Made by a program: the position numbers and the translations under genes
Notes under the pieces: generated by a model
Databases searched by the model: none
Told to the model about the DNA's origin: nothing
What the model saw: only the letters and a program-made list of their open reading frames with translations
Part shown: positions 482 to 49,151 of the stretch, piece by piece
How positions within the stretch are numbered: the first letter of the stretch is position 1
Layout: every line of letters begins with the position of its first letter
Assembly: GCF_964194155.1 (NCBI RefSeq)
Contig: NC_135899.1
Location: 2,790,001-2,854,000 of the forward strand
Length of the DNA stretch: 64,000 bases
Source: Cetorhinus maximus
Taxonomy: Eukaryota
Direction: 5' to 3'

Positions 482-497
482 GGCTCTGAAAAGAGCC
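482..497 (-). terminator. Histone 3' stem-loop of H1-like gene A
   Basis: Minus strand GGCTCTTTTCAGAGCC, followed by purine-rich HDE-like AAAGAAG/AAAGGGTTG. Confidence 0.95.
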
Positions 498-553
498 TTT
501 TTTTTTCTTTCAGGTTTTGGGATGTTTTAAGGATGGATGAGGATTTGTGTCCC

Positions 554-1201
554 TCAGGCTTTGCCCTGAATTTCCGAACAGGCTTGGCTGGTTTTCTCAG
601 AGGCGGAAGTTTCCTCCGGGGTCGGCGCTTTGCTCCCTTCCTCCGGGGGTTTGGCCAGTTTCCTGGGCTTTGGCCGCTGGCGCCTGCCCTTCCCGGGGCT
701 CCTGGCCGCCTTCCTCCCCTTGGGGCTTCTGGCTTTGCGGCTCCCCTTCGCCCCCCTCCTGCCGCCGGCCGCCCTCCTCATCTTCCTGGGGGCGACCCTC
801 CTCCTCTTGGGCCTCTTGGCCGCGGCTTTCCGGCCCCTCCCCCGGCCCGAGGGCTTCATCCTCGGCTTCCTCTCCGCCCGGGTGGCCTCCTCCTTCTGCC
901 CTTTGCTGCTGAGTTTGAAGGAGCCCGAGGCGCCGCTGCCCGAGGTCTGCACCAGGGAGCCTTTGCTGACCAGGCTCCGGACCGCCTGCTTGAGCCGCCA
1001 CTTGTTGGCGGCCACGTCGTAGCCGCTGCCCGACAGCACCTTCTTGAGGGCGGCCAGCGAGAGGCCGCGACGCCCCTTCTTGCTGCCGGCCACCGCCTCC
1101 AGGATCCGCTCGGACACGGTGCCCGAGCCGCTCCGCTGGGCCGGCGGCTGAGGGGCCTTGGCCCTCCTCCCCTTCCTCCTGGCCGGCAGGGTATCGGCCA
1201 T
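554..1201 (-). CDS. H1: Arg-rich linker histone H1 / protamine-like protein A (215 aa)
   Basis: Winged-helix motif [46 protein letters not shown], basic tail, intronless, stem-loop. ATG at 1201 (ORF track starts at an upstream GTG). Confidence 0.92.
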
Positions 1202-1273
1202 CACTGGGCTCGGCGGGTCTTCCCTCCTCTCCCTCCCTCTGCCGAGAAATGAAGAGTTTGCAGCGGCCGCCGC

Positions 1274-1280
1274 TATTTAA
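1274..1280 (-). promoter_or_regulatory. TATA-like box of H1 gene A
   Basis: TTAAATA about 73 nt upstream of the ATG. Confidence 0.6.
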
Positions 1281-1308
1281 CCGGGTCAGCCCGACGCTGC
1301 AGAGTCAA

Positions 1309-2412
1309 AGACCAACTCCGGGATCACAGACCAACTCCGGGATCACAGACCAACTCCGGGATCACAGACCAACTCCGGGATCACCCCCAGGCCGGGATCA
1401 CAGACCAACTCTGGGATCACAGACCAACTCCGGGATCACAGACCAACTCCGGGATCACAGACCAACTCCGGGATCACCCCCAGGCCGGGATCACAGACCA
1501 ACTCCGGGATCACAGACCAACTCCGGGATCACCCCCAGGCCGGGATCACAGACCAACTCCGGGATCACCCCCAGGCCGGGATCACAGACCAACTCCGGGA
1601 TCACAGACCAGCTCCGGGATCGCAGACCAACTCCGGGATCACAGACCAACTCCGGGATCACAGACCAACTCCGGGATCACCCCCAGGCCGGGATCACAGA
1701 CCAACTCCGGGATCACAGACCAACTCCAGGATCACAGACCAACTCCGGGATCACAGACCAACTCCGGGATCACCCCCAGGCCGGGATCACAGACCAACTC
1801 CGGGATCACCCCCAGGCCGGGATCACAGACCAACTCCGGGATCACAGACCAACTCCGGGATCACCCCCAGGCCGGGATCACAGACCAACTCTGGGATCAC
1901 AGACCAACTCCGGGATCACAGACCAACTCCGGGATCACAGACCAACTCCGGGAGCACAGACCAACTCCGGGATCACAGACCAACTCCGGGATCACAGACC
2001 AACTCCGGGATCACCCCCAGGCCGGGATCACAGACCAACTCTGGGATCACAGACCAACTCCGGGATCACAGACCAACTCCGGGATCACAGACCAACTCCG
2101 GGAGCACAGACCAACTCCGGGATCACAGACCAACTCCGGGATCACCCCCAGGCGGGGATCACAGACCAACTCCGGAATCACAGACCAACTCCGGGATCAC
2201 CCCCAGGCGGGGATCACAGACCAACTCCGGGATCACAGACCAACTCCGGGATCACAGACTAACTCCAGGATCACAGACCAACTCCGGGATCACAGACCAG
2301 CTCCGGGATCACAGACTAACTCCAGGATCACCTCCACATCAGGAGCAGAGACTAACTCCGGGATCATCTCCACATCAGGAGCAGAACTAACTCCCGGATC
2401 ACCCCCACATCA
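1309..2412. repeat. Minisatellite: 19-nt CCGGGATCACAGACCAACT interspersed with 17-nt CCGGGATCACCCCCAGG
   Basis: Visible tandem array, degenerating after about 2330. Confidence 0.97.
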
Positions 2413-2554
2413 GAACCTGGGAGAAAATCATCCTTTCAAATTGTTTTAAATAAAGAGACACATTACACCAGGAGATTCCGTCTTTCTTTTTAATCTTGCG
2501 CCAAATAGAGTGATTTTTTTTAAAAAAAGTTGAATTCAATAAAGTGTCTTTCAT

Positions 2555-2862
2555 GACCACATGGCACCTTAATGCGTTTTACAGCCAGTATGTTGTTGGT
2601 GTAACCATTGTGTAATGTAGGAAACTCAGCAGCCAATTTGAGCACAGCAAGAGCACAATGTGAACATGCCCATAGAATCGGTTTTGTGTGTGTGAGATGT
2701 TGACTGAGGGATAAATATTGGTTAGGAAGCCAGGGATAAATCCGCTGCTTTTCTTCCAAATAGTGCCCTGGAATCTTTTACAACCACTTGAGAGGGCAGA
2801 ATGGGGCCTCGGATTAATATGTCATCCGAAAGACGGCACCTCCGGCAGTGCAGCACTCCCTC
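2555..2862 (-). mobile_element. Deu-domain SINE fragment (SacSINE1-like)
   Basis: Minus strand GCACTGCCGGAGGTGCCGTCTTTCGGATGAC..GAGGCCCC..CAATATTTATCCCTCA; related copies near 15600-15990, 16120-16500, 40525-40810, 58025-58190, 59330-59550. Confidence 0.7.
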
Positions 2863-3099
2863 CTCAACCTTCTTACTCGGAGGAAAGAGCCTTTCCAGTT
2901 AAATAATTTGGGTCAATTTCGACGAGTCTTATATCTGAATACAAGGCATCTGTTTTCAGAACCGTCAAGTTCTTTTCTTCCCTTTATTGCCATCAGCCCA
3001 TAAGTTATTTTATCTCCTTTCTTTTGCTGATTTGGTGACCCATGTAGACGCCCAAGAAGGGGAAGCAGCAGCAGCAGAAGGTGCTCTGAAAAGTTGCAG

Positions 3100-3324
3100 C
3101 TAATTGCCACTGCCGTTTGCTGCTCTCGGGGTTTCTGCCGGACTCGAGTTAAAGGTTTGGGAATTGGCATATGTGGACCTTTTTTTCACTCCAGACGTCT
3201 CTCTGGACAGCTCGGCAGATTGAGAGGGGGGGTTGTTGCTCGTCTCAGGGCTGCCTTTGGTTTGAGAATTGGTGTCGGGGACATTCTCCCGCCTGTTTCT
3301 GAACTTCGGTGTGAGTTTACTTCG
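3100..3324 (-). other. Putative alternative terminal coding exon (74 codons + TAG) downstream of H1 gene B
   Basis: Polypyrimidine tract and CAG acceptor at 3325, open phase-0 frame RSKLTPKFRNRRENVPDT...GSGN*, AATAAA at 2983-2988. Confidence 0.45.
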
Positions 3325-4666
3325 CTGCCAGAGGAGGAGAGGAGAAAGGAGGCGAAACTAGCAGCAAAAACTTGCCCTTAATTGCATCGCTCATAACGAA
3401 CTGGGCAAAAGCACATCAACACAACCTGTGCATTGCAATGTATTGGTATATTTACCAGTGAAATGCAGGCATCGTCCCAGTCAATTGTGCAACCGATATG
3501 TTCATGTTAAACAAACGTATTAATGTTACTGTCTGTGAATATAAACCTAAGATCCAAAGTTTGCGATAACCCCGGGGGTCAAGGAACCAGCCATGTCGAT
3601 AACCGTCCACAAAAAATTAAATAATTTTATACAACATGTACGAAAATAAAAAATCCAATATCTATCCCACATTAAAAGCGATATCTACCCTTTTCCCCTT
3701 CGCCGTTTACACGTTAATTGTCTCAGACTCCTGCCAAATAACGTCATGGTTTCGGTGACAGAAATTGTGAAACGAAAGGTGCATTTTAAAGGTATAACCG
3801 ATTTCGTTTTTAAAGATACCCTCCAAATAAAACTGTAAATGCAGGGAAATCTCAGCAGTCCGCCCGCCCAGCATTTGAGAGAAAGGTGTCTCCAAAATGT
3901 TAATTAAAAAAACCCAAAGGCGCCTGTATTCAGGTTCAGCAGCACAATACATTTAAAGTAGCTATTGTCATGTTTTTAAAAGGTGGAAGATTGAATTTTT
4001 TTTTAAAAACACACACACACACACAAGAAGTGCTGGAAATACTCAGCAAGTCCGGTAGTTTCTGTGAGCGAGAAAGGGAGTTAAAAACGTTTCAGGTCAG
4101 GAATGGGGAGAAAGTTGGGTGAGTTGGTTTGAGGTTGATCCCCTGGTGAAAGGTCCCTGTGAAAAGTGGGAGTCGGGTATTCGGTGCTCATTCGCGTTTC
4201 CTTTTAATTTAAAGTTTAATTGGAGCGGGTGGACAAACTAAACCCCATTATATATATATATATATATATATACACCGCCCGGGAGGCGAGATGAGTGAAT
4301 ACTAACCCGCCCGGGACCCCCATAAAAGCAAAATGAATGTAAATAAATCAGCAATTGTGATCGATGGGGAAGGAGGGGGGGAAATCCTGTGACCCCTTCC
4401 GTGTGATCGCTCAAATCCTCCTTTGACGCTCTTTTAATCGGCGCCTTCAACCTTTTATCATCCAATAATCAAAAGAAATGTTCCCCCAAAGGGTGACTTG
4501 CTGACACAGAGACTTTTATTTCCTTTCCTCTCGCTTTTACAAATGGGCAAAAATCTAAATCTATTAATTTTCTTAACTTGAGCCAAATGGTTCCCCCGCC
4601 CAATCTTCGGAAGAAAATATTTGGCAGCTTTTTATGTGATCCAGCTCCCCTTCTGCTAAATTCGGT

Positions 4667-4682
4667 GGCTCTGAAAAGAGCC
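4667..4682 (-). terminator. Histone 3' stem-loop of H1-like gene B
   Basis: GGCTCTTTTCAGAGCC followed by AAGGGGAGCTGG HDE-like element. Confidence 0.95.
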
Positions 4683-4738
4683 TTTGTGTTATTGTTTTAG
4701 TTTTTCTTTTCCACGGAGGGAGACGAAGTTTCATCCCT

Positions 4739-5629
4739 TTACCGACGGGCGTAATTTACCCTCTTGGGCCCGAACGGGGGATATTTCCTCGGGCGCCCCA
4801 CCGACCGCTTGGGTTTGGAGCCGGCGGGCGGCCGCCGGCGGTGGATGTTGGCCCCGGCCGCCGTCTTCCTGCCGCCCCGGAGCGGCTTGTTCCTGCGGTA
4901 GGGCCGCGCCCGGCCTCCCCCGCCGCCGCCCCCTGCCTTGCCCCGGGCGGCTCCGGGCCGGCGGGCGGGTTTGAGCTTGCGGCGGGTCGGCGCCGCCTTC
5001 CTGGGCTTCCTGGCGGTCGCCCCCTTGCGCCGGGCGGCGGCGGCTCCTCCTCCTCGGGGTTTCTTGGCGGCGGCCGAGCTCTTGGCCTGCGACCCTTTCC
5101 TGGAAGCGGTCGGCGTGGCTTTGACGGGCGCCGACGTTTTCTTCTTGGGGGCCCCGCCGCCCGTCTCGTCTTTGAGCGGGGCCGTGCCGGCCGCCGCCGG
5201 GGGGAGGGTCGCCGCCGCCGCCGCAGCCACTCCTCCCCCTCCTCCTCCAAGGCCGGCGCCCAGGGCCGGCGTGTCGGCGCGGATCCGGGAGCGGTTGAAG
5301 CGGAAGGAGCCCGCGGCTCCCACCCCGGCCGTCTGCACCAGCGAGCCGTTCCGCACCAGCTGCTTGACCGTCTGGTTGACCCGCGTGTTGTTGCGGCACA
5401 CGTCGTAGCCCTTGGCCGAAAGCGCCTTCTTGAGGGCGGCCAGCGAGATTCCCCGCCGCTCCTTGGTGGCCGCCGCCACCTGCAGGATGCGCTGGGTGAC
5501 CGTGGGCCCCGTCTTCTTGCGGCGGGGCGAGGAGCGCGGCGGCGGCAGCTGCTGCTTCTTCTTCCGGGCGATCGCCTTCTCCACGCTCAACTCGCCGACG
5601 TCTTCCACTTTCTGGCTGTTGTCGGCCAT
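4739..5629 (-). CDS. H1: Long Arg/Gly/Ala-rich linker histone H1-like protein B (296 aa)
   Basis: Globular domain PTVTQRILQVAAATKERRGISLAALKKALSAKGYDV..GSLVQTAGVGAAGSFRF; TATA and H1 box upstream; stem-loop downstream. Confidence 0.92.
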   Translation of the reverse strand: MADNSQKVEDVGELSVEKAIARKKKQQLPPPRSSPRRKKTGPTVTQRILQVAAATKERRGISLAALKKALSAKGYDVCRNNTRVNQTVKQLVRNGSLVQTAGVGAAGSFRFNRSRIRADTPALGAGLGGGGGGVAAAAAATLPPAAAGTAPLKDETGGGAPKKKTSAPVKATPTASRKGSQAKSSAAAKKPRGGGAAAARRKGATARKPRKAAPTRRKLKPARRPGAARGKAGGGGGGGRARPYRRNKPLRGGRKTAAGANIHRRRPPAGSKPKRSVGRPRKYPPFGPKRVNYARR

Positions 5630-5796
5630 GCTGGGCTGGCGGGAGAAAGAGAGAGAGAGCACAGGCGGTGCGAGGATGGGGTGCAGGGAGGCGGTGATGA
5701 TGGCGGGAAAGGGGGGATTGGTTACAGCTCTTCCTGTTTCAGCCTCCACCAGCACAAGCGGCTGAAACTGAAGAGGCGGCGAGTCCAGGCAGCCGC

Positions 5797-5940
5797 TTAT
5801 ATAGGGCAAAGGCGGACGGAGTGGAGGAGACTTCCGCCCCTCACATCCCCCTCCCCCCCCCCCCCACAACCTTTCCCCCCGCCCCCTCCCCCTCCCCCAA
5901 CCACCCACCCGCTTCCCTCTCCCTCCTCAAGTTTGTGTTT
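5797..5940 (-). promoter_or_regulatory. H1 gene B promoter within a CpG island (about 4740-6330)
   Basis: TATATAA 5797-5803, G-rich boxes, H1-specific AC box AAACACA 5934-5940. Confidence 0.75.
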
Positions 5941-6824
5941 CTCCCATTCCCTCAAACGCCCCCTCCCCACTCCACCCGGAACCCCCGGACCCCCGGAGCC
6001 GCTCCGCCGCCTCCCCCCGGCCGCGAAGCCGCCTCGGGCGCCCCGCCTCGCCCCCCCGGCCCCCGGCGTCGCGGCGCCAGGGGCGCCCGGGCCCCCAAGT
6101 CGCCGGCGCCCTCCGGCGTTTTGCCCCTTCCTCCCGGGAAACGGGGGGCAATTCCCGGGGCGGGGCGGGAACTGGAGGTCCGGCCGGCCGGCAGGGTGGC
6201 CGGCGTCGGCTCTCCGGCAGGGAGCCGCGACCGTGCGGCTTGCGACGCTCGGAAATGGCTGGGTAAATGCGGCTGCAGTAACACAGGTCGTCGGGAAAGT
6301 GGGGCTGCACCGGGGCAAACTCCTGTAAGCCAATGGGATCACTTGACCAGGTCTATGCCTGGCCTGGGGGAACTGCTGTATCCAATAATGTGATGTAGCA
6401 ATTTGAAGTGTGCCAATGTTGGACCTGGAACATGTTTTCTGATTTCCTGAGGTTGTGGGATATGGGAGCGGGGCCAAAAACTGGATACTTCCAAAAATGT
6501 CAGATCTATTTCCCTTGGATTGCTGTTTATGAACAGTTTTATTTTTGGAAAACAAGAAAACTTGAATTGATTTATTTTTTTCAGAAATGATCTGAGCTCT
6601 TTCTGTTATGAACACAAAGGTCGGTTCCACAAACCATGCCCCGCTCAGGGGCCTGTGCTGGGTTATAAGAGCTGTGCCAAATGCGCTTCCATCCATTGCT
6701 CGAACATGTGGCCACTGAGCAATGAGGGAATGTGAAAGATGTACAAGCCCGCATGCACCATGTTTAGACCTGGTCAGGGCGTAATTCTTTTCGAATGGAA
6801 AGCCAACTAGTCTGATTTGAATAA

Positions 6825-6995
6825 AAATAAAATACCCCCGATGCTGGAAATCTGAAATAAAAACAGAAAATGCTGGAAAAACTCAGCAGCTCTGAAGAAG
6901 GGTCAAACAGATTCGAAACGTTAACTGTTTCTCTCTCCACAGATTCTGTCATAGCTGCCGAGTTTTCCCAGCGTTTTCTGTTTTTATAGTCTGAT
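6825..6995. mobile_element. Short Penelope pLTR-derived inverted element with a hammerhead-like motif
   Basis: Arms AAAATGCTGGAAAAACTCAGC / GCCGAGTTTTCCCAGCGTTTT match the termini of the element at 25575-28345; similar remnants near 4027, 12985, 19490, 22947, 35660, 36905, 38160, 47213, 51750. Confidence 0.7.
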
Positions 6996-8304
6996 TTGAA
7001 ACTCAGCCTGGTCTCCAAGGAAGCTTTATACGGTAATGCATCACATTTCCATGTCATTGCATCACCAATTATTACGCGGTTTACGCCACCTGCTTTGTCA
7101 GCGAGCTTTTGCACGCCAGATGTTTGACCTTTCTCGACACGGCTTGTGGTTGGGAGTTTAAAGGCTATTTCCAATCTACCTAATAACATTTGAATGATGG
7201 GTGATGGTACAAAGTTATTAGGGGGATTCCTGACCAGAACTAATGATCTTAAATTAAATTATGAAGCTCCAGATGTAAAATAAATATTAAGTATGTAATT
7301 TGCGTTTCGTAATTTTCAAAATCCCATAAAATGTGCGAGAATACATTGAGGTTCCAGCAAACTGACCAAATAAAGAATGCGTGGAAATCGGGGGAGCTAA
7401 TACGCTAGATATGAACGTCGGAATTAAATTAAATATTCCCTTTAGGACTTTTCAATGTTTGCTGGTCAACTGAGTCGGCTCATTTCCTACATTACAAGGG
7501 CGACTGCACTTCATTAAGAAAAAAAAAACACTTTAGCTGCAAAGCGCTTCTGGATGGCTTTAAGTCGTGAACGGCGCTGTATGAACTCAAGTTTTTTTTT
7601 TACATTTTCAATCGCAGTTATGGATGTTCTATTTCATATTCGCCGTCCACTCTAATTGATAATGGACCAATTCCTTCATAGGTCATTTCCAAAATGAACT
7701 GGGTCGATTGGTCCAGCATTTATTTCAGCACACACACGAAACACATTTATAGACAAGAGAAATCCCTTCACATTCCTTCAATCAATTTGCCACCGAAACG
7801 TAAGAACCTCAGGATTCGCCAATACTGTTGATGTGGTAAACATCATGATCAGATGAGATCGTACTGTGTTTATGGATTTAAATATTAATATATATATATA
7901 TTTTTTTTTTAAATGGAATTAAACAGTCCGACCTGAATTACTTGACATAATACGGCAGGATTTTTCTAATGAGTCGAAAGATTTGTGTTCCCTGAAGTTT
8001 AACCGGTTTTTCCGCTTGCTGGCGGAGGAAATTCGCGGGCGGGCAACTTGCAGAAAGGGGAAAATCTCCGCCTTCTTGCCCAAAAACTTTTGTTTACGCT
8101 GGTTGAACTTATGCTAATAGATCTCTGTCCGCAAAGTTCTTGTTGCAGGGCAGACTGGGTCAACCACGGCGGGAAGACATCGAGGTGGGAGTTTGTCTCG
8201 GGCCGTGGCGCAAAACGGGCGTAGCGGGTCGTCCGTTTAAATGCAATGGAACTGAATAAAATCAGGGGCCCGGGGCGATTCGGACCGTTTTGCGTGAATT
8301 AAAC

Positions 8305-8590
8305 TCAGAGATGAGATTTATTTTTTCCTCTCAGAGGGTTGTGCGACTTTGTTAACCCTCCGCCTCAGAAGGCGGTGGTGGCGGAGTCATTAATATTTTA
8401 ATAATCTACCTGGAGGTAGATAGATACTTGTTAGTCAAGGGAATCAAAGGTTATCGGGGGGTAGGTGGGAATGTGGAATTTGAAACAGAAACAGATCAGC
8501 CATGATCTTATTGAATGGCAGAGCAGGCTTGAGGGATCGAATAGCCAACTTCTGCTCCAATTTCCTATCTTCGTCTATGCTCGTTTGTAT
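8305..8590 (+). mobile_element. CR1 LINE 3' fragment
   Basis: GAGATGAG..TCTCAGAGGGT..CAGATCAGCCATGATCTTATTGAATGGC tail shared with other CR1 copies in the window. Confidence 0.7.
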
Positions 8591-9514
8591 GTAGCTGGGT
8601 CAGGTCCTGGGAAATAACCCGTTTGAGTCCAAGGTTGGCAAACATTCTTCCTGGCCGCACACCTGCAGCTCTTGACGTCCGGCCGGGGATTGTCCATCTG
8701 TGCAGAATGCCCAAGACCACTGCTCTATCGGCAGCCATGTCAAATCATTCGGCCTCAGCGACCAAATCTTAATCCCCGAAGGCAGTCAATGATGACGCTG
8801 TGGATTGAACTCTTCCAAATGGGGTTGCATTGATCTTGCCGAAGGCTCTGGCAGACAAATGCATTCCTCAACAGGCAGGGAATGGAAGATGACAGAGATT
8901 CCAGTTTTAGGACCTGGAATGCATTGCCTGGAAGACTGATTGAAGCAGATCCAATAGGCAATTGGGTCCCTACTTAAAAAGGAAAGACATTCGCACTTAT
9001 GGGGGAGAGAGTACTTGGACTGCAGAAACTGATAGCTCTTTCGGGGCAGCTGGAAGAGATACGATGGGGGTCAATGCTCTTCTCCTGTGCTGTAGGATTA
9101 GTTGGCAGGAAGATGTTTATGTTGCGGCTCGGAGCCACTGGATAGAATGAGCTATTCAATCATAGAATCATTGAGATTTACAGCACGGAAGGAGGGCTTT
9201 CGGCCCATCGTGTCCGTGCCGGCTGACAAGCCCGGCCTAATGCCACTCTCCTCTTTGTCCTCAGCATATCCAAATGCTTTTTTAAATGTGATGAGGGTTT
9301 CTGGCTTTACTGCCATTTCAGGCTGTGAGTTCCAGATCCCCGTCACCACCCCCTCCAATCCGCTCTAAACTTCTTAGCTCCCACCTTAAAGGTATGCCAC
9401 TTAGTTAGGGACCTCAAAACCAAAGGGAGGCTTTCCTGCCCACTTTATCGAGACTCCTCAGAATTTTGTATACACTTCAATTGGGTGTCCCCTAAACACT
9501 TTTAAGTTCAGCCT

Positions 9515-9705
9515 TTCACGGGATGTGGATGTCACTGGCAAGACCAGCATTTGTTGCCCATCCCTAATTGCCCTCGAACTGAATGGCTTGCTAGGCCATT
9601 TCAGAGGGCAGTTAGGAGTCAACCACATTGCTGTGGGTCTGGAGTCACATGTAGGCCAGACCAGACCAGGTAAGGACGGCAGATTTCCTTCTCTAAAGGA
9701 CATTG
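9515..9705 (-). mobile_element. SINE 3' half
   Basis: Reverse complement of the 16651-17040 SINE. Confidence 0.75.
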
Positions 9706-11445: not shown

Positions 11446-11471
11446 AGGCTTAGAGGAATTGCAGTAGTTCC

Positions 11472-18058: not shown

Positions 18059-18231
18059 CTTGCCGCTTTGGGCCGGCTGGAACGGGCTGCTGAGCGAGAA
18101 TGGCAATCGGGCTTTGTGGCCGGCCAGTGGTTTGGAGGTTGCTGGCCGAGGTGGGGTTCGGAGACGGGGCAGACGGATGGTGCAGGGCGCCCGGGTAGGG
18201 AATGAAACGGATCCCTCGAAATGTCAGAGAG

Positions 18232-18381: not shown

Positions 18382-19035
18382 ATGGCTGAGGTTGTTGTAC
18401 CTGATCAGGTGGACGTGCCACCTCCGCCGCCCATGATGGTGACGACGGCGACGCCGCCGGCCGTTGCCGCTGGCAGCGCCTACACCCTCCTCGCACCCTC
18501 CATTCCCGCGCCTGTCGACCCAGCTTCCCCGGTGCCGCCGCCGCCCCTCCCCACTGCCGCCGTCGCCAAGAAGAAGAACACTTACCGTCCGCAGAAAGCG
18601 GCCACCGTCGGCACGGTGGCCGAGCACATCCTGGAAGCCGTGGCCGCCACCAAGGAACGCCGGGCCCCCGCCGCCCTGGCCGCCAGGCAGAAAAACGTCT
18701 CGGCCGCCGCTTACGACGTGGAGGGGGCCGGCGTCCCGCCCGTGCACCCGACCGTCAAGGCGCCCACCAGCAAAGGGCCGTCGACGCTAGGCGAAGGCGG
18801 CCCGGCTCCTCTCCAAAGCGGCACCGCGCCAGAGGCGGAGGGAGGGATGCAGAAGAAACCCGGAAGTAGAAAAAGGTCTCCTCCGAGGGCGACATCGGCG
18901 GCCAGAAAGCCGCATAAAAACTCCAAGGGGCTGAAAACGCTCAGACGGTCGGCGACCAAGCCGAAAAAAGCCCCCAAGCGGCCGGCAACGTGCAGGCCTG
19001 TGGGGCGTAAGCGGGTGGCGGGGAAGAGGAGGTAG
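18382..19035 (+). CDS. H1-derived protein C with Pro-rich N terminus and degenerate globular domain (217 aa)
   Basis: Helix 1 TVAEHILEAVAATKERR and AYDV retained; helix 3/wing diverged; basic tail; ORF intact with TATA and stem-loop. Confidence 0.8.
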   Translation: MAEVVVPDQVDVPPPPPMMVTTATPPAVAAGSAYTLLAPSIPAPVDPASPVPPPPLPTAAVAKKKNTYRPQKAATVGTVAEHILEAVAATKERRAPAALAARQKNVSAAAYDVEGAGVPPVHPTVKAPTSKGPSTLGEGGPAPLQSGTAPEAEGGMQKKPGSRKRSPPRATSAARKPHKNSKGLKTLRRSATKPKKAPKRPATCRPVGRKRVAGKRR

Positions 19036-20874: not shown

Positions 20875-21261
20875 ATGCCTGACTTGGCGGCTGCGACGAA
20901 GGGCGGTGCGTCCCGCAAGGCGTCGAAACAGTCGCTGATTAAAGTCACCAAGAAGCCGCCCAAGAAGCGAAGAAAATCTCGCAAGCAGAGCTATTCCATC
21001 TACGTGTACAGGGTGCTGACCCAGGTCCACCCTTCCACCAGGATCTCGTCCAAGGCCATGAGCGTCATGAATTCCTTCGTTGTCGACATTTTCGAGCGCA
21101 TCGCTTCCGAGGCGTCGCACCTCATCCACTACAACAAGCGCCGCACCATTTCGGCCCGGGAGATCCAGAGCGCCGTCCGCCTCATGCTGCCGGGGGAACT
21201 GGCCAAACACGCCGTCTCCGAAGGCACCAAAGCGGTCACCAAGTACACCAACTCCGTTTAG
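20875..21261 (+). CDS. H2B: Divergent histone H2B variant 1 (128 aa)
   Basis: Histone fold [36 protein letters not shown]; intronless. Confidence 0.96.
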
Positions 21262-31470: not shown

Positions 31471-31480
31471 GGAGAACTGA

Positions 31481-31927
<447 letters not shown>

Positions 31928-36184: not shown

Positions 36185-36802
<618 letters not shown>

Positions 36803-37478: not shown

Positions 37479-37514
37479 TTTGGGTTGAATTTTAAATTGA
37501 TCTGTCGAGAAGCT

Positions 37515-37895
37515 CTATTTGCAGCTGGTATATTTAGTGACAGCCTTGGTGCCCTCGGAGACGGCGTGTTTGGCCAGTTCCCCCGGCAACAGGAGGCGGA
37601 CGGTGGTCTGGATCTCCCGGGAAGAGATGGTGTGCCGTTTGCTGTAGCGGATCAGGCGGGAAGCCTCGCAGGCGATGCGCTCGAAGATGTCGTTGACGAA
37701 CGAGTTGATGACACTCATGGCTGAAGAGGAAATGCCGGTGTCGGGGTGGACTTGCTTCAGCACCTTGTAGATGTAGATGCTGTAACTCTCCTTCCTGCTT
37801 TTCTTGCGCTTCTTCTCACCTTTGCCGCGTTTCTTAGTGGCAGTTTTCTTTGGCCCTTTTTTAGGAGCCATGCCCTTAGCAGCCGCTTCAGGCAT
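37515..37895 (-). CDS. H2B: Divergent Cys-containing histone H2B variant 2 (126 aa)
   Basis: Histone fold with [16 protein letters not shown] and C-terminal TSCK. Confidence 0.96.
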
Positions 37896-37936
37896 TCCGA
37901 ATGAAAGTGGTGAACAAAGCAGCCTTGAGCGCCTCA

Positions 37937-39615: not shown

Positions 39616-40819
39616 AATGGATCCTTGGATGACTCCTGAGTCAACAGGACAGTGCAAGGATGGGAAGAGACCAAGTTGTAGAGCAGCAGTGTCTGTATTC
39701 ACATAGGTAAGAGTAGATACAATAGAGAGCAGTCCCCTACTGAGCTGGACAATGGAAACAAGGTACTGATGAAGGGTGATGGTCATTATAATATTTATTA
39801 AGGCTGTGAATCATTGTCATAAAACTTTACAACCCTTGAATACAATTAAACTTGGCCAGAAACCTGACTGCAACAGGCCCATGTGGTGACATTCAGGTTG
39901 AATATGCCCCAAGCTGTTAATACCAACTTCATTCCCTGTCTAGTCACTAGCTCAGGTGAAACAGGCTTTTCTCAACCCTAGCTGAGCTTCCAACTACAGA
40001 AACCTTCCATCAGCAATGTATCTGATCATGTATCTGTAAGCCTGATGTAAAGGGTATGATGGAATGCTCATCATTAGCTTGGATGGATGCAGCATAAGAA
40101 ACCGAAAACTGTAAGGAAAACGCCAATTCAGCCTGAACAGAGCCCAGACTACTGATTCAGTATCTAAGGCAGGGCACTGTTGCTGTAGCCTGTACTATCA
40201 ACTAGATGCACATCACCTGCCTCCCATCCCTGTGACCTACCATATGATAAAACAGCAATATCATGGGAATATCAGCACCCTCCTGTTCCCTTCAAAACCA
40301 CACACCACTGGCCATTCATCATAACCGGTTAAAAATCCAGGAATTCCCTAATTAATGCCACCAAGGGAATACCATCATCACAAGGATTCGAGGAAAAAGT
40401 TTTTCATCACAGCCTCAGAGTAAGGAGGGATGGACAATTAAAATGGGGCTTTGCTGTATCGCCTGCATTCTGTGAACAAATAAAATATAACGTTGAGGAA
40501 GTCAAGAGGTAACAACAATGTAAGAAAGAACTCCCATGTACATAGCCCCTTTTCACATCCACAGAGCATCCGAATGAATTAAAGTGAAGTCACTGCTATT
40601 TTTGTAGAGAAACAATAGCCAATTTGCCCACAGGAGGATCCTACAAACAGTAATAAAATGATCTGTTTTACTGACCAGGGCACCAGGACAATTTCTCTGC
40701 TTTTTTATCAAATGGGATCATTTGCATTCACCTAAACAGACAGTGCTTCAGTTCAATGTCTCATCAACAATACATCACCACCATCAATGCAGCACTCCCT
40801 CAATACTGCACAGAGGGCT

Positions 40820-43085
40820 TGGTCTGAACTGGCAAATTAGGTTAAGGGATAGGTCAACAGAGATGCAGCAGAAAACTTTTAAGGGGGTATTTCAGAATAC
40901 ACATAATAAGTACATTCCAAAGAGTAAGAAAAAGTCCAAGGGATGAACCGCCGTGGTTAACTTGAAAGGTTAAAGATAGTATCAAACTTTAAGAAAAAGT
41001 ATATATTTGTACAAAGATAGGCGGAAGGCCAGAAGATTGGACAGAATATAAGGACAGCAAAGGATGACTAAAAGGTTAATAAGGAGGGAAAAATTAGAGT
41101 ACGAGAGAAAGCTAACCAGAAATATAAAAACAGGCAGTAAATATAAATGTTTCTTGAAAAACGAGTTAACAAAGTGAGAATTGGTCCTATAGAAAGTGAG
41201 TCTGGAGAATTGATAATGGAAAACAAGGAAATGGCAGATGAATTGAACAGGTATTTTGCATCAGTCTTCGCTATAGAGGATACAAGTAACAGCCCAGAAG
41301 CAGCTATAAATCAGGAAATGGAAAGTAGGGATGGACTCAGGTAAATTACAATCACCAGACAAGTGGTACTGAATAAATTGTTGGAGCTGCGGGCTAACAA
41401 GTCCCTGGGCCCTGATGGACTTCATCCTAGGGTCTTAAAAGAAGTGGCTAGTGAGATAGTTGATGCATTAGTTTTAATTTTACAAAACTCCATAGATTCG
41501 GGGAAGATCCCATTAGATTGTAAGGTAGAAAATGTAACTCCATTATTCAAAAAGGAATGGAGACAGAAATCAGGAAACTACAGGCCAGTTAGCTTAACAT
41601 CTGTCTTAGGGAAAATGCTGGAAGTTATAGTAGGGCACTTGGTTAAGTTCAAGGTAATCAGGCAGAGTCAGCATGGTTTTATGAAAGGGAAATCATGTTT
41701 AGCCAACTTATTGGAGATCTTTGAGGGAGTAACATGTGTTGTGGATAAAGGGAAACCGGTGGATGTGCTATACTTAGATTTCCAGAAGATGTTTGATAAA
41801 GTGCCACTTCAAAGGTTATTGCGGAAAATAAAAGTTCATGGTATAGTGGGTAACACATTGGGATGGATAGAAGATTGGCTGGCTAACAGGAAGTACAGTG
41901 TAGGCATAAATGGGCCTCCTTCAGGTTGGCAAAGTGTAACAAGTGGTGTGCCACAGGGATCAGTGCTGGGACCTCAGCTGTTTACAATTTATATGAATGA
42001 CTTGGATGAAGGGATGGATGGGATGGTTTCCAAATTTGCTGACCGACACAAAGATATGTAGAAAAATAAGTTGTAAAGAGGACATGAGGAGGCTATAAAG
42101 TGACATAGATAGGTTAAGTGAGTTGGCAAATGAAGTATAATGTGGGAAAATGTGAAATTGTCCATTTTGGAAGGGAGAATACAAGAGAAGCATATTATCT
42201 AAATGGTGAGAGTTTGCAGAGCTCTGAGATGCAGAAGGATCTGGGTGTCTTAGTGCATGAATCGTAAAAGGCTAGTATGCAGTTACAGCAAATGATAAGA
42301 AAGCTAATAGAATGTTACCATTCATTATGAGGGGAATTGAATACTGAAGTAGGGCGGTTATGCTTCAGTTGTACAGGGCACTAGTAAGGCCACATTTGGA
42401 GTACTATGTACAGTATTGGTCAGCTGATTTAAGGAAGGATGTAAATCCATTGGAAGTAGTTCAGAAAAGGTTTAACAGACTAATACCTGGAGTTAGTGCT
42501 GGTCACATTGGGACAGACTGGATTGGAGCAGAACCAAATGAAAGCAACGAAGTGCAGGCAGACTACAAAAGATGGCAGAGGAGGATGGAGAAAATAATGT
42601 TATGGTGCCTCGAAAGGTGTCAAAGAGGGATTGCGTACGGCAGTTGAACAGTTAGAAACAATACATTTGGTAACCTTGCCCAGGCCAAAGGGTAGAAGAA
42701 TAAGAGGCGACTTAATTGAAACATAAAAGATCCTGAGGGGACTTGACAGGGTGGATGTGGAGAGGATGTTTCCTCTTGTGGGAGGATCTAGAATTAGGGG
42801 TCACTGTTTAAAAAAAGTTAAAACGGAGATGAAGTGATTTTTTTTCTCTCAGGGGTTCGTAAGTCTTTGGAACTCTCTTCCTGAGAAGGTGGTGGAAGCA
42901 GAGCCTTTGAATATTTTTAAGGCAGAGGTGGATAGATTCTTGATAAGCAAGGGGATCATAGATTACCGGAGTTGGTGGGATGCAGATTTCAGGTCACTAT
43001 CAGATCAGCCATGATCTTTTAAATGGCAGATCAGGCTCGAGGGGCCGAATGGCCTACTGCTGCTCCTTTTTTGTATGTTCGTATC
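40820..43085 (+). mobile_element. CR1 LINE, 2.2-kb decayed ORF2
   Basis: GPDGLHPRVLKE, NYRPVSLTS, YLDFQK, GVPQGSVLGP. Confidence 0.92.
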
Positions 43086-44160
43086 CTCCCTATGAGCAAG
43101 TCTTGAACTTCTTGATTCAGAGGTCAAGGTGCAACTACCAATGAACCAAGTTGGTAAAAGTGTGGAGAAGGGTCCCTTTCAACAGAAGTAGTAGAAAGGA
43201 AGGAGCTGAAACAGTAACGGGGAAAATATATGATAGGGTTTGAAGCACAGCTCAGGGAAAAACATGACATAGGGTTCAAGGTGAACAAGCTGCCAAGCTG
43301 GGCTGAAACGGGGGCTAAGGAACTATTCTTACTGGGAGCCAAACAGAACTGGCCTTGGTGTAAAAGCTGTAGAAAGTTTGCAGTAATATAGAGATACATC
43401 TTGGTGGCACAAACAGACACATGGAAGTTGGCAGACACATCGAAGGATGATGCCAATGAGATGAAACGTGTGTCCATGTAGCTTGAATTACCCACAACCA
43501 GGAAAAAGATATTGGACTTAGTGCTGGTCGCGTTGGGACAGACTGGATTGGAGCAGAACCAAATGAGGGCAACGCAGTGCAGCCAGACTACAAAAGATGG
43601 CAGAGGAGGACGGAGAAAATAATGATGTGGCGCCTCGAAAGGTGTCAAGGAGAGATTGTATACCGCAGTTAAAGTTAGAAACAATGCCTTTGGTAACCTT
43701 GCCCAGGGTGAACTCAATGCTGGGGGAGGGGTTGAACGCTTTTAAATCAGGAATAGCCCTAGGGTACGGTGGTGAAGATTCATTTGAAGACCTTGAAGAA
43801 GGAATGAAAGATAGAGAAATAACAGTAGCTCCCTGGTGTGCTCTGAATGCCTTTCCAAAGTGTTCATTATAGCAGACAGCCTCACGGTGTGGGCAAAGAG
43901 CTAAAACTAAATGAAGTTCACAGGGAAGCAGAAAATCCCTCCTCAAGTCTAACAATATAAAGGTACATTTTGGTGGCAAATGGTTCCTCAGAAATTGCCA
44001 TTAATTAACCGGTTTTGAGGCATATTTTCAGCCCAGTTTGAGCTTATTCAAGTTTTTCATGGGTATTTTTTTAGCGGTTTAATTGTTGCACATGCGCCGC
44101 TTTGAAAATTCAAATGAACCCAACAGCCAACGGTCAACCGTTTGTGACATCGCCGGACAG

Positions 44161-44235
44161 CTCATTTGCATATAAGGATTGAAAATGCAACCCCGGCGGT
44201 AGCCAATCAGAAATCAGCGTTGTTTAAACCAATGG
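44161..44235 (+). promoter_or_regulatory. Orphan octamer/CCAAT cluster before the assembly gap
   Basis: CTCATTTGCAT at 44161, AGCCAATCAG at 44201, ACCAATGG at 44228. Confidence 0.5.
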
Positions 44236-44359
44236 CGTTGCAATACGTTGAATGAGGTGGGTTCAGTTATTTCAACCAGGCAGCGTTAATCCGAAAGTCA
44301 AACTTGGTTCACTTGAATCTATCAGTTTGGAGACAGGCCAATATATTGAATGGAATAAA

Positions 44360-44559
44360 NNNNNNNNNNNNNNNNNNNNNNNNNNNNNNNNNNNNNNNNN
44401 NNNNNNNNNNNNNNNNNNNNNNNNNNNNNNNNNNNNNNNNNNNNNNNNNNNNNNNNNNNNNNNNNNNNNNNNNNNNNNNNNNNNNNNNNNNNNNNNNNNN
44501 NNNNNNNNNNNNNNNNNNNNNNNNNNNNNNNNNNNNNNNNNNNNNNNNNNNNNNNNNNN
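44360..44559. other. Assembly gap (200 N)
   Basis: Run of N. Confidence 1.
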
Positions 44560-44894
44560 AATTTCACTTGTGGAAATTTCACTCTCGCTACTGGGTTTCG
44601 CCTCTTCCTCATCAAAAGGATGATTATTAATCAGTCGGGCAGCATGGTCACCGGCTTTGAAATCGCATCACTCTGACACCGCTGGTACCAGTGATGACTG
44701 CATTTCACATCATGCGGGAACTTGTGCGCAGGTGCAGACCGGGCGGGGCCGCACATGCGCGGTTCAGCCTTTTTCCCTGTGCTTTGTGCCCAGCGCGCCT
44801 GCGCAACAAGAAAAAGGGCGCGAAAACAAGGGTCAGGTGACCGGGAGCCCAGCGTCATCAAAAGCAAGTGTCCCAGACAGGAAGAGGGGGGCAG

Positions 44895-45812
44895 AGAGAG
44901 GTCCCCAAAGGAAAGGAAGATAGGGAGAGGTCCCAAAGGGCGAGGGGAGGTCCCAAAGGGAGAGGGGAGGTCCCAAAGGGAGAGGGGAGGTCCCAAAGGG
45001 AGAGGAGAGGTCCCAAAGGGAGAGGAGAGGTCCCAAAGGGAGAGGGGGGTAGGGAGAGTAGGGTAGGGAGAGGTCCCAAAGGGAGAGGGGGGTAGGGAGA
45101 GGTCCCAAAGGGAGAGGGGGGTAGGGAGAGGTCCCAAAGGGAGAGGGGGGTAGGGAGAGGTCCCAAAGGGAGAGGGGGGTAGGGAGAGGTCCCAAAGGGA
45201 GAGGGGGGTAGGGAGAGGTCCCAAAGGGAGAGGGGGGTAGGGAGAGGTCCCAAAGGGAGAGGGGGGTAGGGAGAGGTCCCAAAGGGAGAGGGGGGTAGGG
45301 AGAGGTCCCAAAGGGAGAGAGGGGTAGGGAGAGGTCCCAAAGGGAGAGGGGGTAGGGAGAGGTCCCAAAGGGAGAGGTCCCAAAGGGAGAGGGGGGTAGG
45401 GAGAGGTCCCAAAGGGAGAGGGGGGTAGGGAGAGGTCCCAAAGGGAGAGGGGGGTAGGGAGAAGTCCCAAAGGGAGAGGGGGGTAGGGAGAGGTCCCAAA
45501 GGGAGAGGGGGGTAGGGAGAGGTCCCAAAGGGAGAGGGGCGTAGGGAGATGTCCCAAAGGGAGAGGGGAGTAGGGAGAGGTCCCAAAGGGAGAGGGGGGT
45601 AGGGAGAGGTCCCAAAGGGAGAGGGGGGGTAGGGAGAGGTCCCAAAGGGAGAGGGGGGGTAGGGAGAGGTCCCAAAGGGAGAGGGGGTAGGGAGAGGTCC
45701 CAAAGGGAGAGGGGGGGGCGTAGGGAGAGGTCCCAAGGGGAGAGGGGGTAGGGAGAGGTCCCAAAGGGAGAGGGGGGTAGGGAGAGGTCCCAAAGGGGAG
45801 AGGGGGGTAGGG
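44895..45812 (+). repeat. G-rich minisatellite, about 29-nt GGGAGAGGTCCCAAAGGGAGAGGGGGGTA; then four ~26-nt GC-box units to 45945
   Basis: Visible tandem array. Confidence 0.97.
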
Positions 45813-46012
45813 AAAAAGGAGCGCGTCTGGAGGGTGATGGGGATGCGCGCCGGGAGGGGGGGCGGGTACGCGCGCCGGGAGAGGGGGGCGGGTACGCGCG
45901 CCGGGAGAGGGGGGCGGGGACGCGCGCCGGGAGAGGGGGGCGGGGAGGTCTCGCCTCTCTCACGTCCGCCTTGAGGGTTGAAGGCGCCGCCTCCCCCGCA
46001 GGAGTCGCCGAG

Positions 46013-46681
46013 ATGGCTTCGGGCGACCTGCTCGAAGGCCCCTCCCGAGGCAGGAAGGTGAGGAGGCGGAGGAGCCCGGCCAAGGTGTGGCAGGGGGCGC
46101 CGGCGGCGGCGGGGGGAGCGCCCACCATGGCCGCCCACATCCTGGAGGTGGTGGCGTCTTCCCGGGAGCGCCGCGGCCTCTCGCTGGCCGGCGTCAAGAA
46201 GGCGCTGTCGGCCGCCGGCTACGATGTGCCGCGGATCAACTCGCGGGTGAACCAGGCGGTCCGGGGCCTGGTCACCGAGGGTTCGCTGCTGCAGACGGCG
46301 GGCACCGGGGCCTCGGGCTCCTTCAGGATCAACCGGCAGCACCTGGACGGCCAGAGCCGCCCGGCGGCCGCCGCCGCTGCTCCGACACCCAAAGCCCGGG
46401 GCCGGCGGGGGAGACCGGCCGCCGGCCGCAAGGGGAAGATGAAGAGGAGCCCGGCCCGGGTGAAGGTGAAGAAGCCGAAGCCGGGCGGCCGGAGCAAGGG
46501 CGGCGCCGGCCCGAGGAAAGTCTCCAAGGGCAGCGGCGTCCGGAGGCCGCGCGGGCGGCCCCGGAAAGTGGCCAAGGAGCCGGCGCCAGGGGCTGATCCG
46601 GCCGCCCGGGGAGAGGAAGGTGAACCAGGGGCCGGAGCTGAGAACATCCCCGGGGGAACCGGACAAGGAGCAAAACGGTGA
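46013..46681 (+). CDS. H1: Arg-rich H1-like protein D with AT-hook (222 aa)
   Basis: PTMAAHILEVV..ERRGLSLAGVKKALSAAGYDV..GSLLQTAGTGASGSFRI; RRPRGRPRK in the tail. Confidence 0.92.
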   Translation: MASGDLLEGPSRGRKVRRRRSPAKVWQGAPAAAGGAPTMAAHILEVVASSRERRGLSLAGVKKALSAAGYDVPRINSRVNQAVRGLVTEGSLLQTAGTGASGSFRINRQHLDGQSRPAAAAAAPTPKARGRRGRPAAGRKGKMKRSPARVKVKKPKPGGRSKGGAGPRKVSKGSGVRRPRGRPRKVAKEPAPGADPAARGEEGEPGAGAENIPGGTGQGAKR

Positions 46682-46745
46682 AGGAGGGAAAATAAAAAAA
46701 CATCCGAGTGGAGAAAATATCCACCTGCAAAAATACAGAAAAAAA

Positions 46746-46761
46746 GGCTCTTTTCAGAGCC
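46746..46761 (+). terminator. Histone stem-loop
   Basis: GGCTCTTTTCAGAGCC. Confidence 0.95.
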
Positions 46762-47372
46762 ACCGACTCCTTCAGGAAAAAGGGAAATGACCGAAAATCC
46801 CCGCGATGGTCAAATATAAAAATAAAAACCCCAATAACACAGACGGTGGAAAACTAATGAAAATAGTGAAAACACTCGGCATCTGCGGACAGGGGAAGTT
46901 AGAAACTTGGACATGGAGGTGAAATCGGGGGGAGGATGGGACAGAAAAACAAGAGGCAAATCTGATCCTGTCTCCGGGAGGGAGACGGGAGAAAACAGCG
47001 AGAAAAATAAAGAAACTACAGGTGGGGAATGTGGATGGTGGCGGGGGGATTATTTTCACACCCAGTTGTTGTGGCCTGGAAGCAAATTCAATCTTCGCTT
47101 TCACAAGGGAATTAATTGGGTTAAAAACAAAAAAAACACTGGAAGGGTCAATAAATTGCTGCGTTTTGCGGGGGCGAAACCCGGAATAGCGCAGCTTGGA
47201 TATAAAAAATAATAAAATGCTGGAAAAACTCAGCAGGTCCGACAGCTTCTGTGGAGAGAGAGAGAGAGATACAGAGATAACGTTACCAGTTCGTGTGAAC
47301 CTTCAGAAGAGAAATTTGATGGACCTTTCAAAGAGTTGTCACAGTATTGATTTCTGCATCTGGAGAGGAATC

Positions 47373-48547
47373 TGGAATGGGGCAGGGGGTTTGTGTAACT
47401 GGGGAGGGGGTGGAATGGGGCAGGGGGTTTGTGTAACTGGGGAGGGGGATGAAATGGGGCAGGGGTTTTGTGTAACTGGGGAGGGGGGTGGAATGGGGCA
47501 GGGGGTTTGTGTAACTGGGGAGGGAGGTGGAATGGGGCAGGGGTTTTGTGTAACTGGGGAGGGGGGTGAAATGTGGAATGGGGCAGGGGGTTTGTGTAAC
47601 TGGGGAGGGGGGTGAAATGTGGAATGGGGCAGGGGTTTAGTGTAACTGGGGAGGGATGTGGAATGGGGCAGGGGTTTAGAGTAACTGGGGAGGGGGGTGG
47701 AATGGGAAATGGGGCAGAGGTTTTGTGTAACTGGGGAGGTTGGGTGTGGAATGGGGCAGAGGTTTAGTGTAACGGGAGGGGGGTGAAATGGGAATGGGGC
47801 AGGGGTTTAATGTAACTGGGGAGGGGGGTGAAATGGGAATGGGGCAGGGGTTTAGTGTAACTGGGGAGGGAGGTGGAATGGGGCAGGGGTTTAGTGTAAC
47901 TGGGGAGGGATGTGGAATGGGGCAGGGGTTTAGTGTAACTGGGGAGGAGGGTGAAATGGGAATGGGGCAGGGGTTTAGTGTAACTGGGGAGGGGGGTGAA
48001 ATGTGGAATGGGACAGGGGTTTTGTGTAACTGGGAAGGGGGGTGAAATGTGGAATGGGGCAGGGGTTTTGTGTAACTGGGAAGGGGGGTGAAATGTGGAA
48101 TGGGGCAGGGGTTTTGTGTAACTGGGAAGGGGGGTGAAATGTGGAATGGGGCAGAGGTTTAGTGTAACGGGAGGGGGGTGAAATGGGAATGGGGCAGGGG
48201 TTTAATGTAACTGGGGAGGGGGGTGAAATGGGAATGGGGCAGGGGTTTAGTGTAACTGGGGAGGGATGTGGAATGGGGCAGGGGTTTAGTGTAACTGGGG
48301 AGGAGGGTGAAATGGGAATGGGGCAGGGGTTTAGTGTAACTGGGGAGGGGGGTGAAATGTGGAATGGGACAGGGGTTTTGTGTAACTGGGAAGGGGGGTG
48401 AAATGTGGAATGGGGCAGGGGTTTAGTGTAACTGGGGAGGGATGTGGAATGGGGCAGGGGTTTAGTGTAACTGGGGAGGGATGTGGAATGGGGCAGGGGT
48501 TTAGTGTAACTGGGGAGGGAGGTGAAATGTGGAATGGGGTAGAGGTT
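47373..48547 (+). repeat. G-rich minisatellite, 38-46-nt GTGTAACTGGGGAGGGGGGTGAAATGTGGAATGGGGCAGGGGTTTA
   Basis: Visible tandem array with higher-order block repeat (47788 vs 48183). Confidence 0.97.
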
Positions 48548-48559
48548 TCTCCCAGAGCA

Positions 48560-48616
48560 GCCAATTGGAGTAGACAACCTGCAATCCTACATTAGCATAG
48601 CGCTGCCTATATATAA
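48560..48616 (+). promoter_or_regulatory. H2B-3 promoter
   Basis: GCCAATTGG, ATTAGCAT 48591-48598, TATATATAA 48608-48616. Confidence 0.8.
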
Positions 48617-48701
48617 GGAGGGGTTTCCATGCTGGGAAATAGTTGCTGCTGAGTGTCTCCGCAGGCGAACTGAATATTGAGGAGGATTTGAAGTGTTTGC
48701 A

Positions 48702-49109
48702 ATGCCGACCGCCGCCGTTTCCACCAGCGCCACGGCTGTCGGCGCCAAGGGCTCCCTCTCCAAGAAAGGCTCGAAGAAAACGGCGATGAAGATGTCCAGG
48801 AAGGGCGACAGGAAGCACAGGCGGAGCAGGAAGGAGAGTTACAGCATCTACATCTACAAGGTGCTGAAGCAAGTCCACCCGGACACCGGCATCTCCTCCA
48901 AGGCCATGAGCGTCATCAACTCGTTCGTCAGCGACATCTTCGAGCGGGTGGCCGGCGAGGCTTCCCGCCTGGTCCATTACACCAGGCGGCAGACTATCTC
49001 CTCCCGGGAGATCCAGAGCGCCGTCCGCCTCCTGCTGCCGGGGGAACTGGCCAAACACGCCGTCTCCGAGGGCACCAAGGCGGTCACCAAGTACACCAGC
49101 TCCAAGTAG
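48702..49109 (+). CDS. H2B: Histone H2B variant 3 with extended N-tail (135 aa)
   Basis: [17 protein letters not shown]..; histone fold intact. Confidence 0.96.
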
Positions 49110-49135
49110 AGCTGCCAATAAAGAAACAAACAAAA

Positions 49136-49151
49136 GGCTCTTCTAAGAGCC
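49136..49151 (+). terminator. Histone stem-loop flanked by AATAAA signals
   Basis: GGCTCTTCTAAGAGCC; AATAAA at 49117 and 49179. Confidence 0.9.

Follow-up and report, generated by a model that had tools for sequence, protein, structure and literature searches.

What use could a shark have for a cluster of histone genes in which no member encodes one of its ordinary histones? This question is raised by a stretch of 64,000 nucleotides of the basking shark Cetorhinus maximus (contig NC_135899.1, positions 2,790,001 to 2,854,000; hereafter the window), in which nine single-exon histone open reading frames (ORFs) span positions 554-49109: four H1 derivatives (H1a to H1d), three H2Bs (H2Ba to H2Bc), one H2A (H2A-v) and one H3 (H3-H125). 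An earlier interpretation made from the letters alone (the sequence-only reading) had described nine intronless, intact histone genes, which was borne out for all nine, and had proposed a lineage-specific set for sperm or other specialised chromatin. Sharks and rays indeed possess a locus of stem-loop-bearing variants of H1, H2A, H2B, H3 and H4 that is set apart from the canonical histone arrays. The locus is probably strongly transcribed in germ cells, where it would serve spermatogenesis.

A variant locus apart from the canonical arrays

The window holds part of a larger locus. A scan of positions 2,430,001-2,944,000 of the same contig (C22), gapless in coverage and made by stem-loop only in the last 30 kb, revealed 22 histone genes in 514 kb (2.43-2.94 Mb), none of them canonical. 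They form two sub-clusters, with 12 genes between 2.508 and 2.566 Mb and 10 genes between 2.786 and 2.839 Mb; the tenth gene of the latter lies about 4 kb upstream of the window and the 12-gene sister sub-cluster about 220-280 kb upstream of it. The sister sub-cluster contains a copy of H1d, a copy of H1a interrupted by an assembly gap, two H1c-type genes and three further H1 variants, together with two H2A-v genes (proteins identical to H2A-v of the window), one Cys-rich H2B and two H4 variants. Three further variant genes, two encoding a protein identical to H3-H125 and one encoding an H2B, are located at 25.13 Mb of C22. Ten dispersed stem-loop matches inspected outside C22 and the two contigs with canonical arrays (C32 and C39) included no intact variant gene. 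The genes have been annotated by NCBI, by machine, as 'histone-like'.

The canonical histones of the species are encoded on C32 and C39, in arrays with at least 150 H3 genes, in agreement with the earlier claim that the window genes are not the ordinary histones. The array units sampled encode canonical H3, near-uniform H4, H2A and H2B, and a Lys-rich H1, and none of the nine window proteins is identical to an array protein sampled, so that 'none canonical' also stands. Among 150 H3 matches scored, three were identical to the window H3, all on C22, and most others lay in the C32 and C39 arrays. A codon-125 pattern gave 159 matches, and all 94 listed on C32 and C39 encode Gln (59 of the 159 fall outside the matches listed). 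H3-H125 equals H3.2 at 135 of 136 residues, the sole change being Q125H, which rules out an identity as H3.3 or centromeric H3. An assembly error as the source of Q125H was likewise ruled out, because the substitution recurs on 16 contigs and in three genes of this genome that are 22-24 silent changes apart. H2A-v differs from canonical H2A by six changes in the first 121 residues and by a new C-terminal tail, and the three window H2Bs share 72, 78 and 79 of their 90 C-terminal residues with canonical H2B. One H4 variant carries S1T, V65I, A69S, K79R and M84L, the other T54V and A69S. All five core proteins of the window contain the Pfam histone fold. The 'Cys-bearing H2Bs' of the sequence-only reading shrank to one of three, H2Bb having two Cys and H2Ba and H2Bc none.

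Several observations on the setting of these genes were made in passing. The most divergent H2B of the locus, at C22:2,564,963 (L025 4963-5343), shares 62 of 90 C-terminal residues with canonical H2B, has five Cys and is the sole member of its 90 % cluster. At C22:2,510,170 (L045 155-170) a perfect histone stem-loop without upstream histone ORF lies behind a G-rich repeat and is probably a remnant gene. Assembly gaps of 200 N are present at 44360-44559 of the window, beside H1d, and at about 6500-6700 of stretch L024, within the second copy of H1a; near these gaps, spacing and copy number are uncertain. An unplaced contig (C408, L072) encodes a canonical-type H1 of 240 amino acids with repeated Ser-Pro-Ala-Lys-Lys units, adjoining a frameshifted H3. 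X-linkage of the locus was considered in the light of 10.1101/2025.02.26.637739 and is not claimed.

Stem-loops and promoters

A histone stem-loop lies 26-64 nucleotides after each of the nine ORFs and is followed by a purine-rich stretch resembling a U7 binding site. Six of the nine loops attain the gathering score of Rfam RF00032, and those of H2A and H3 match the pattern exactly. A single mismatch interrupts the stem of the H1c loop (19078), whose folding energy is -2.6 kcal/mol, versus -9.3 for the two other loops folded; the stem-loop claimed for every gene is thus present throughout, with a flaw in H1c. With general definitions of the TATA, CCAAT and octamer motifs, all three window H2B promoters were found to contain TATA, CCAAT and an octamer-like motif, and the three canonical H2B promoters scanned CCAAT and octamer. 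H1a, H1d and H1e have no TATA or CCAAT match within a promoter of 300 base pairs. In H1c, an in-frame ATG at 18202 sits 5' of the TATA box. Strand-skewed minisatellites are found directly 5' of H1a (1305-2413), H1d (44922-45946) and H2Bc (47373-48548).

Conservation and selection

Exact look-up of the proteins revealed the H4 variant with Val54 and Ser69, letter-identical, on 23 contigs, with Chiloscyllium and Rhincodon as named holders and Scyliorhinus, Amblyraja and Narcine as holders by inferred assignment. Letter-identical H3-H125 was found on 16 contigs, H2A-v on 13, the species range of both being deduced in the same manner, and the second H4 variant (T1/I65/S69/R79/L84) on six. H2Bb has orthologs in six other shark genera (seven database entries, with 88-89 of the 90 C-terminal residues shared), H2Bc has them in four ray genera, and a skate H2A agrees with H2A-v at 123 of 129 residues. 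H1b, H1c and H1d have shark-wide orthologs, H1b also in rays; intact H1c-type ORFs are present in three other genera, and related Arg-rich H1s in a chimaera (Callorhinchus). Variant orthologs lie on one contig, often with near-consecutive accessions, in eight species (Carcharodon, Heterodontus, Heptranchias, Scyliorhinus canicula, Mustelus, Rhincodon, Chiloscyllium punctatum and Mobula hypostoma). The presence of different variants on one contig in these species suggests synteny, as judged from contig membership and accession order and not from coordinates. Sharks and rays separated about 270-300 million years ago, and chimaeras about 410 million years ago. The set is lineage-specific for cartilaginous fishes as a whole and not, as the term might suggest, for the species.

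The window H3 and the H3s at 25.13 Mb differ by 22-24 silent and no amino acid changes, His125 being retained in all. With retrocopies taken as a neutral record (13 of H2Bb, six of H2Ba and seven of H2A-v), the ratio of silent to amino acid changes on the source genes was 4:0 for H2Bb, 5:0 for H2Ba and 8:1 for H2A-v, and pooled 17:1 on the sources versus 145:173 in the copies (p 3e-5). The core variants are under purifying selection. Since several of them are in addition letter-identical across sharks and rays, we regard them as real, ancient and functional. The promoters of the three H2A-v genes differ while their coding regions differ by 1-5 silent codons only, which suggests gene conversion within the locus.

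Retrocopies and probable germline expression

Retrocopies were found for members of all five histone types. DNA searches, in which the H2Ba search filled up at 40 candidates, revealed at least 39 retrocopy loci for H2Ba, at least 37 older ones for H1d (among the best 40 out of 57 candidates), and for H2Bb and H2Bc 15 (13 recent and two older) and eight, respectively. Identity to the source is 93-98 % for H2Ba, 96-99 % for H2Bb, 84-89 % for H2Bc, 74-92 % for H2A and 68-92 % for H1d. The copies fetched start in the 5' untranslated region or are 5'-truncated, stop at or before the stem-loop and are mostly tailless; an A-tail is missing from 12 of the 13 recent H2Bb copies. Target-site duplications, with a chance rate of 124 in 2000, flank nine of 13 recent H2Bb, four of six H2Ba and both H4 copies, and are sparse elsewhere (one of 12 H2A-v, two of eight H1d, neither of the older H2Bb copies). 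In these properties they resemble the tailless retropseudogenes for which germline expression has been named as a main driver (PMC5322556; here and below, sources given by accession number or DOI are cited from the part of their text that was available). Germline expression has likewise been inferred from retrocopies for H2B variants (PMC8857922).

As a control, exact motifs were counted at matching positions for variant and canonical genes. The canonical H2B motif occurs 283 times, 90 times dispersed, leaving at most 193 sources with about 0.5 copies per gene; 12 of 12 dispersed copies sampled were closest to canonical H2B. From one gene each, H2Ba gave 29 dispersed copies and H2Bb nine; the former fall to about 18 after hand-collapsing apparent secondary duplicates (seven of eight on C24, three of four on C32 and one unplaced). 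The H2A motif gave 42 dispersed copies, all of variant type (25 exact), from three source genes, and no dispersed canonical copy among the 100 of 267 matches listed, from about 222 canonical genes. For H3, two dispersed His copies from three genes stand against one Gln copy from about 153, and for H4 two variant copies from two genes against seven canonical ones from about 239. Fisher tests of variant versus canonical copies, which assume that array genes are equal sources, yielded p values from 7e-3 to below 1e-10. The fairest comparison is that of H2B, in which the copy number per gene exceeds that of the canonical genes about 15- to 40-fold. Because tailless retrocopies are so numerous per variant gene, germline expression of the variants is likely, and this part of the sequence-only reading gains indirect support from a strong excess over the canonical genes.

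Canonical dispersed copies are far more frequent for H2B (90) than for H4 (7), H3 (1) and H2A (0), among the matches listed, and the variant H2Bs are the most copied as well; retrotransposition in this genome therefore seems to favour H2B mRNA as a template. One H1b retrocopy (-120 to +44, 89.6 % identical) is duplicated with its flanks in three places, at C22:9.81 Mb (L029), at C22:10.05 Mb (L032) and on C239 (L037). Copies with the H2Ba motif are grouped, eight at C24:45-65 Mb and four at C32:14-20 Mb, and those examined mostly have common end points, which suggests spread by segmental duplication, one set within the canonical array.

Arginine-rich linker histones

The Arg/(Lys+Arg) ratio of the window H1s is 0.43-0.63, versus 0.07-0.16 in four canonical shark H1s, and Lys plus Arg make up 17-29 % of residues versus about 31 % in canonical shark H1. 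Each window H1 has one or two S/TPxK/R motifs. H1b (C-terminally) and H1d contain a Gly-Arg-Pro core, which we take to be AT-hook-like; most orthologs of H1b have retained it, also those of rays, as has one chimaera protein. The Pfam linker-histone domain is recognized in three of the four proteins, H1c lacking it. In H1c and its relatives from Carcharodon, Chiloscyllium and Pristiophorus the globular domain is reduced to its first half; the relatives in skate and chimaera have a complete one. At an E value of 1 no Pfam match was obtained for H1c or four relatives, and one paralog gave a weak match to the N-terminal half. AlphaFold predicted no folded domain for H1c (eight sequences; predicted local distance difference test (pLDDT) 52.7, one helix) and a confident winged helix for H1b (14 sequences; pLDDT about 90). 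The ESM Atlas clusters nearest to H1c and H1d are spermatid-specific, protamine-like and testis-specific H1s (0.88-0.92).

In a FastTree phylogeny of 176 globular domains (76 columns, leaving out H1c and the four multi-domain hits of the P0124-P0126 and P0127-P0128 group), H1b, H1d, skate H1c-type proteins and three Callorhinchus proteins belong to one clade of 33 (support 0.949), of which all 30 named members are from cartilaginous fishes and three are unnamed. Separate clades are formed by the canonical H1s of sharks (0.985) and by the protamine-like H1s of teleosts (0.957). H1a joins the shark H1-variant clade weakly (0.604), and an unnamed relative, P0212, clusters with it. None of the tree sequences was assigned by name to HILS1, H1T2, H5 or an invertebrate protein. 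The term protamine-like, as used in the sequence-only reading, is thus apt as an analogy (Arg-rich and H1-derived) and fails as a statement of family membership. Coordinates of the genes are given in Table 1, together with those of a neighbouring exon outside the histone system, whose Pfam match is weak and below the cut-off of 25 bits.

Table 1 Histone variant genes of the window and the neighbouring exon
Feature	Position	Strand	Remarks
H1a, Arg-rich linker histone variant	554..1201	-	215 amino acids; stem-loop 482-497
H1b, Arg-rich linker histone variant, intact winged helix	4739..5629	-	296 amino acids; stem-loop 4667-4682
H1c, H1 derivative, first half of globular domain only	18382..19035	+	217 amino acids; mismatched stem-loop 19078-19093
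H2Ba, H2B variant	20875..21261	+	128 amino acids; stem-loop 21302-21317
H2A-v, H2A variant (G10, A12, T16, I30, H38, I87, own C-tail)	31538..31927	+	stem-loop 31972-31987
H3-H125, H3.2 with Q125H	36185..36595	-	stem-loop 36132-36147
H2Bb, H2B variant with two Cys	37515..37895	-	126 amino acids; stem-loop 37463-37478
H1d, Arg-rich linker histone variant, AT-hook-like motif	46013..46681	+	222 amino acids; stem-loop 46746-46761
H2Bc, H2B variant, extended N-tail	48702..49109	+	135 amino acids; stem-loop 49136-49151
CALHM-like exon	63684..63998	-	Pfam Ca_hom_mod, E 7e-5, 22.5 bits

Proposed role and alternatives

A role in the male germline is plausible in view of the Arg-rich H1s, the spermatid H1 neighbours in the Atlas and an H1 with half a globular domain. 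The variant mRNAs would be processed via the stem-loop/U7 route, without poly(A), and loading of the core variants would take place either during the final S phase of the germ cells or in meiosis. The resulting nucleosomes may have altered chaperone, H2A-H2A' and tail contacts. Arg-rich H1s, together with H1c and its lack of a folded globular domain, would then start the condensation of spermatid DNA, to be succeeded by intermediate proteins and protamines. In dogfish spermatids intermediate proteins appear first and protamines follow. When human H3.1 was placed in yeast, residue 125 was one of two that had to be swapped back, which was linked to release from Asf1 (10.1101/147264). The same residue borders the NASP-binding motif, and Q125A left NASP binding unaffected (PMC4838342). 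We therefore hypothesize that His125 alters chaperone hand-off. Residue 38 of H2A presumably lies at the H2A-H2A' contact, and Cys could cross-link chromatin. It is possible, and we propose it only tentatively, that a complete alternative male-germline nucleosome (H2A, H2B, H3 with His125, H4 with Val54 and Ser69, AT-hook H1s) is produced from one dedicated locus older than the shark-ray split, with an H1 part as old as the cartilaginous fishes and H1c as a living intermediate between H1 and protamine.

A number of points weigh against a spermatogenic locus. Retrocopies do not reveal whether expression was in sperm, egg or early embryo, retroposition of canonical H2B is frequent too (its 90 copies), and neither His125 retrocopy was traced to the window H3, the genes at 25.13 Mb being the best match of both. 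The H2A control is biased, the motif lying in a fast-changing tail with CpG decay tolerated for the variant only. MYB, CRE and RFX half-site motifs were not enriched in 21 variant versus 11 canonical promoters. In a screen with H2Bb words (23 rows), none of 12 RNA runs exceeded 0.08 of the words; four with at least half of them are of unknown type and probably genomic. The Atlas comparison was made for H1c and H1d alone, without a canonical H1 control. Arg-rich H1s are known in nucleated red cells too (H5; PMC11607694). The word 'histone' was unmatched in one supplement and the main text of a catshark sperm proteome (PMC11083954, seen in part). H1d shows 8:26 silent to amino acid changes, which does not differ from the 128:234 in its copies (p 0.19); it evolves fast, under relaxed or positive selection. 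The available main text of a catshark testis proteome (PMC13052469) yielded no relevant passage and that of PMC13637641 no histone data for shark.

The variants might instead serve the egg or the early embryo: produced and stored by oocytes, they would enter the chromatin of cleavage stages, for which the cleavage-stage histones of sea urchins are the model. The retrocopy excess is compatible with any germline or pre-germline expression, and the invariance of one H4 variant points to an indispensable function and not to the rapid turnover seen in sperm proteins. However, the H1s are Arg-rich and nearest to spermatid clusters, unlike the known oocyte H1s, which are intron-containing, polyadenylated and Lys-rich, and a bulk store would be poorly supplied by one to three genes beside arrays of more than 150, so that we regard a maternal set as unlikely. 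An equally improbable alternative is a mixed locus, its members sharing a location by descent and acting in different cells, some H1s in red or other differentiated cells and some H2Bs in the germline. Retrocopy number and age do differ by gene, as do the promoters (see the three H1s above), but all five histone types have retrocopied members and the window H1s, judged by the known H5 signature, are of the replication-dependent type and not H1.0/H5. Least of all do we expect drifting orphan copies that escaped homogenisation of the arrays and have no special role. Although H1c, with its mismatched stem-loop and missing globular-domain match, and H1d, with its near-neutral ratio, would fit such a fate, letter-identity across sharks and rays and purifying selection largely refute it for the core variants, and H1c-type ORFs have stayed intact in the three other genera. 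Transcription in germ cells for spermatogenesis thus remains the reading that we prefer.

Comparison with known systems

No description of this locus was found in the literature searched (titles and abstract openings); one preprint (10.1101/2025.06.08.657570) mentions large histone clusters and, in the part available, nothing further. Some of the proteins may have appeared earlier as gel bands in dogfish biochemistry (Gusse and Chevaillier 1981; Saperas 1997). Most of what is known of vertebrate germline histone variants comes from mammals, in which the genes are scattered and evolve fast, and variants of H4 are few; if the above holds, a locus made up wholly of variants, its H3 and H4 substitutions unchanged across sharks and rays, would be a second and much older solution. 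It would make two questions testable, namely the effect of single core-histone substitutions in germ cells and the independent conversion of replication-type H1s into protamine-like proteins, and the zonal shark testis permits stage-by-stage tests. Retrocopy counts offer a route to infer germline expression in species for which tissue data are lacking.

The mammalian testis variants (H2B.1, H2A.1, H1.6 and H3.4) are, like the shark genes, intronless and of cluster type; H2B.1 retains a stem-loop (PMC8857922), and H3.4, three residues from canonical H3 and encoded in a small cluster, is required for spermatogenesis (PMC13396413). The shark set differs in its independent origin, in a 22-gene locus without canonical member, in its two H4 variants and in several proteins that are invariant across sharks and rays. 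HILS1/H1.9, H1T2/H1.7 and the teleost protamine-like H1s share with the shark H1s their H1 descent and Arg enrichment and are nearest to them by language-model features, and the absence of a folded winged helix in H1c adds to the resemblance, but the shark H1s form their own clade, contain 17-29 % Lys plus Arg and have retained stem-loops. Human H4.7 (H4G) is also an H4 variant within a histone cluster; H4.7 is truncated, 85 % identical and polyadenylated, while the shark H4s are full length with two and five changes, keep their stem-loops and are conserved between orders. The sperm set of sea urchins consists of H1 and H2B with SPKK repeats, whereas the shark locus varies all five types and has few S/TPxK/R motifs. 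H4 variants have been termed infrequent (PMC8015243), and in echinoderm sperm, as would be the case for the shark set, specialised variants replace the somatic histones (PMC11607694).

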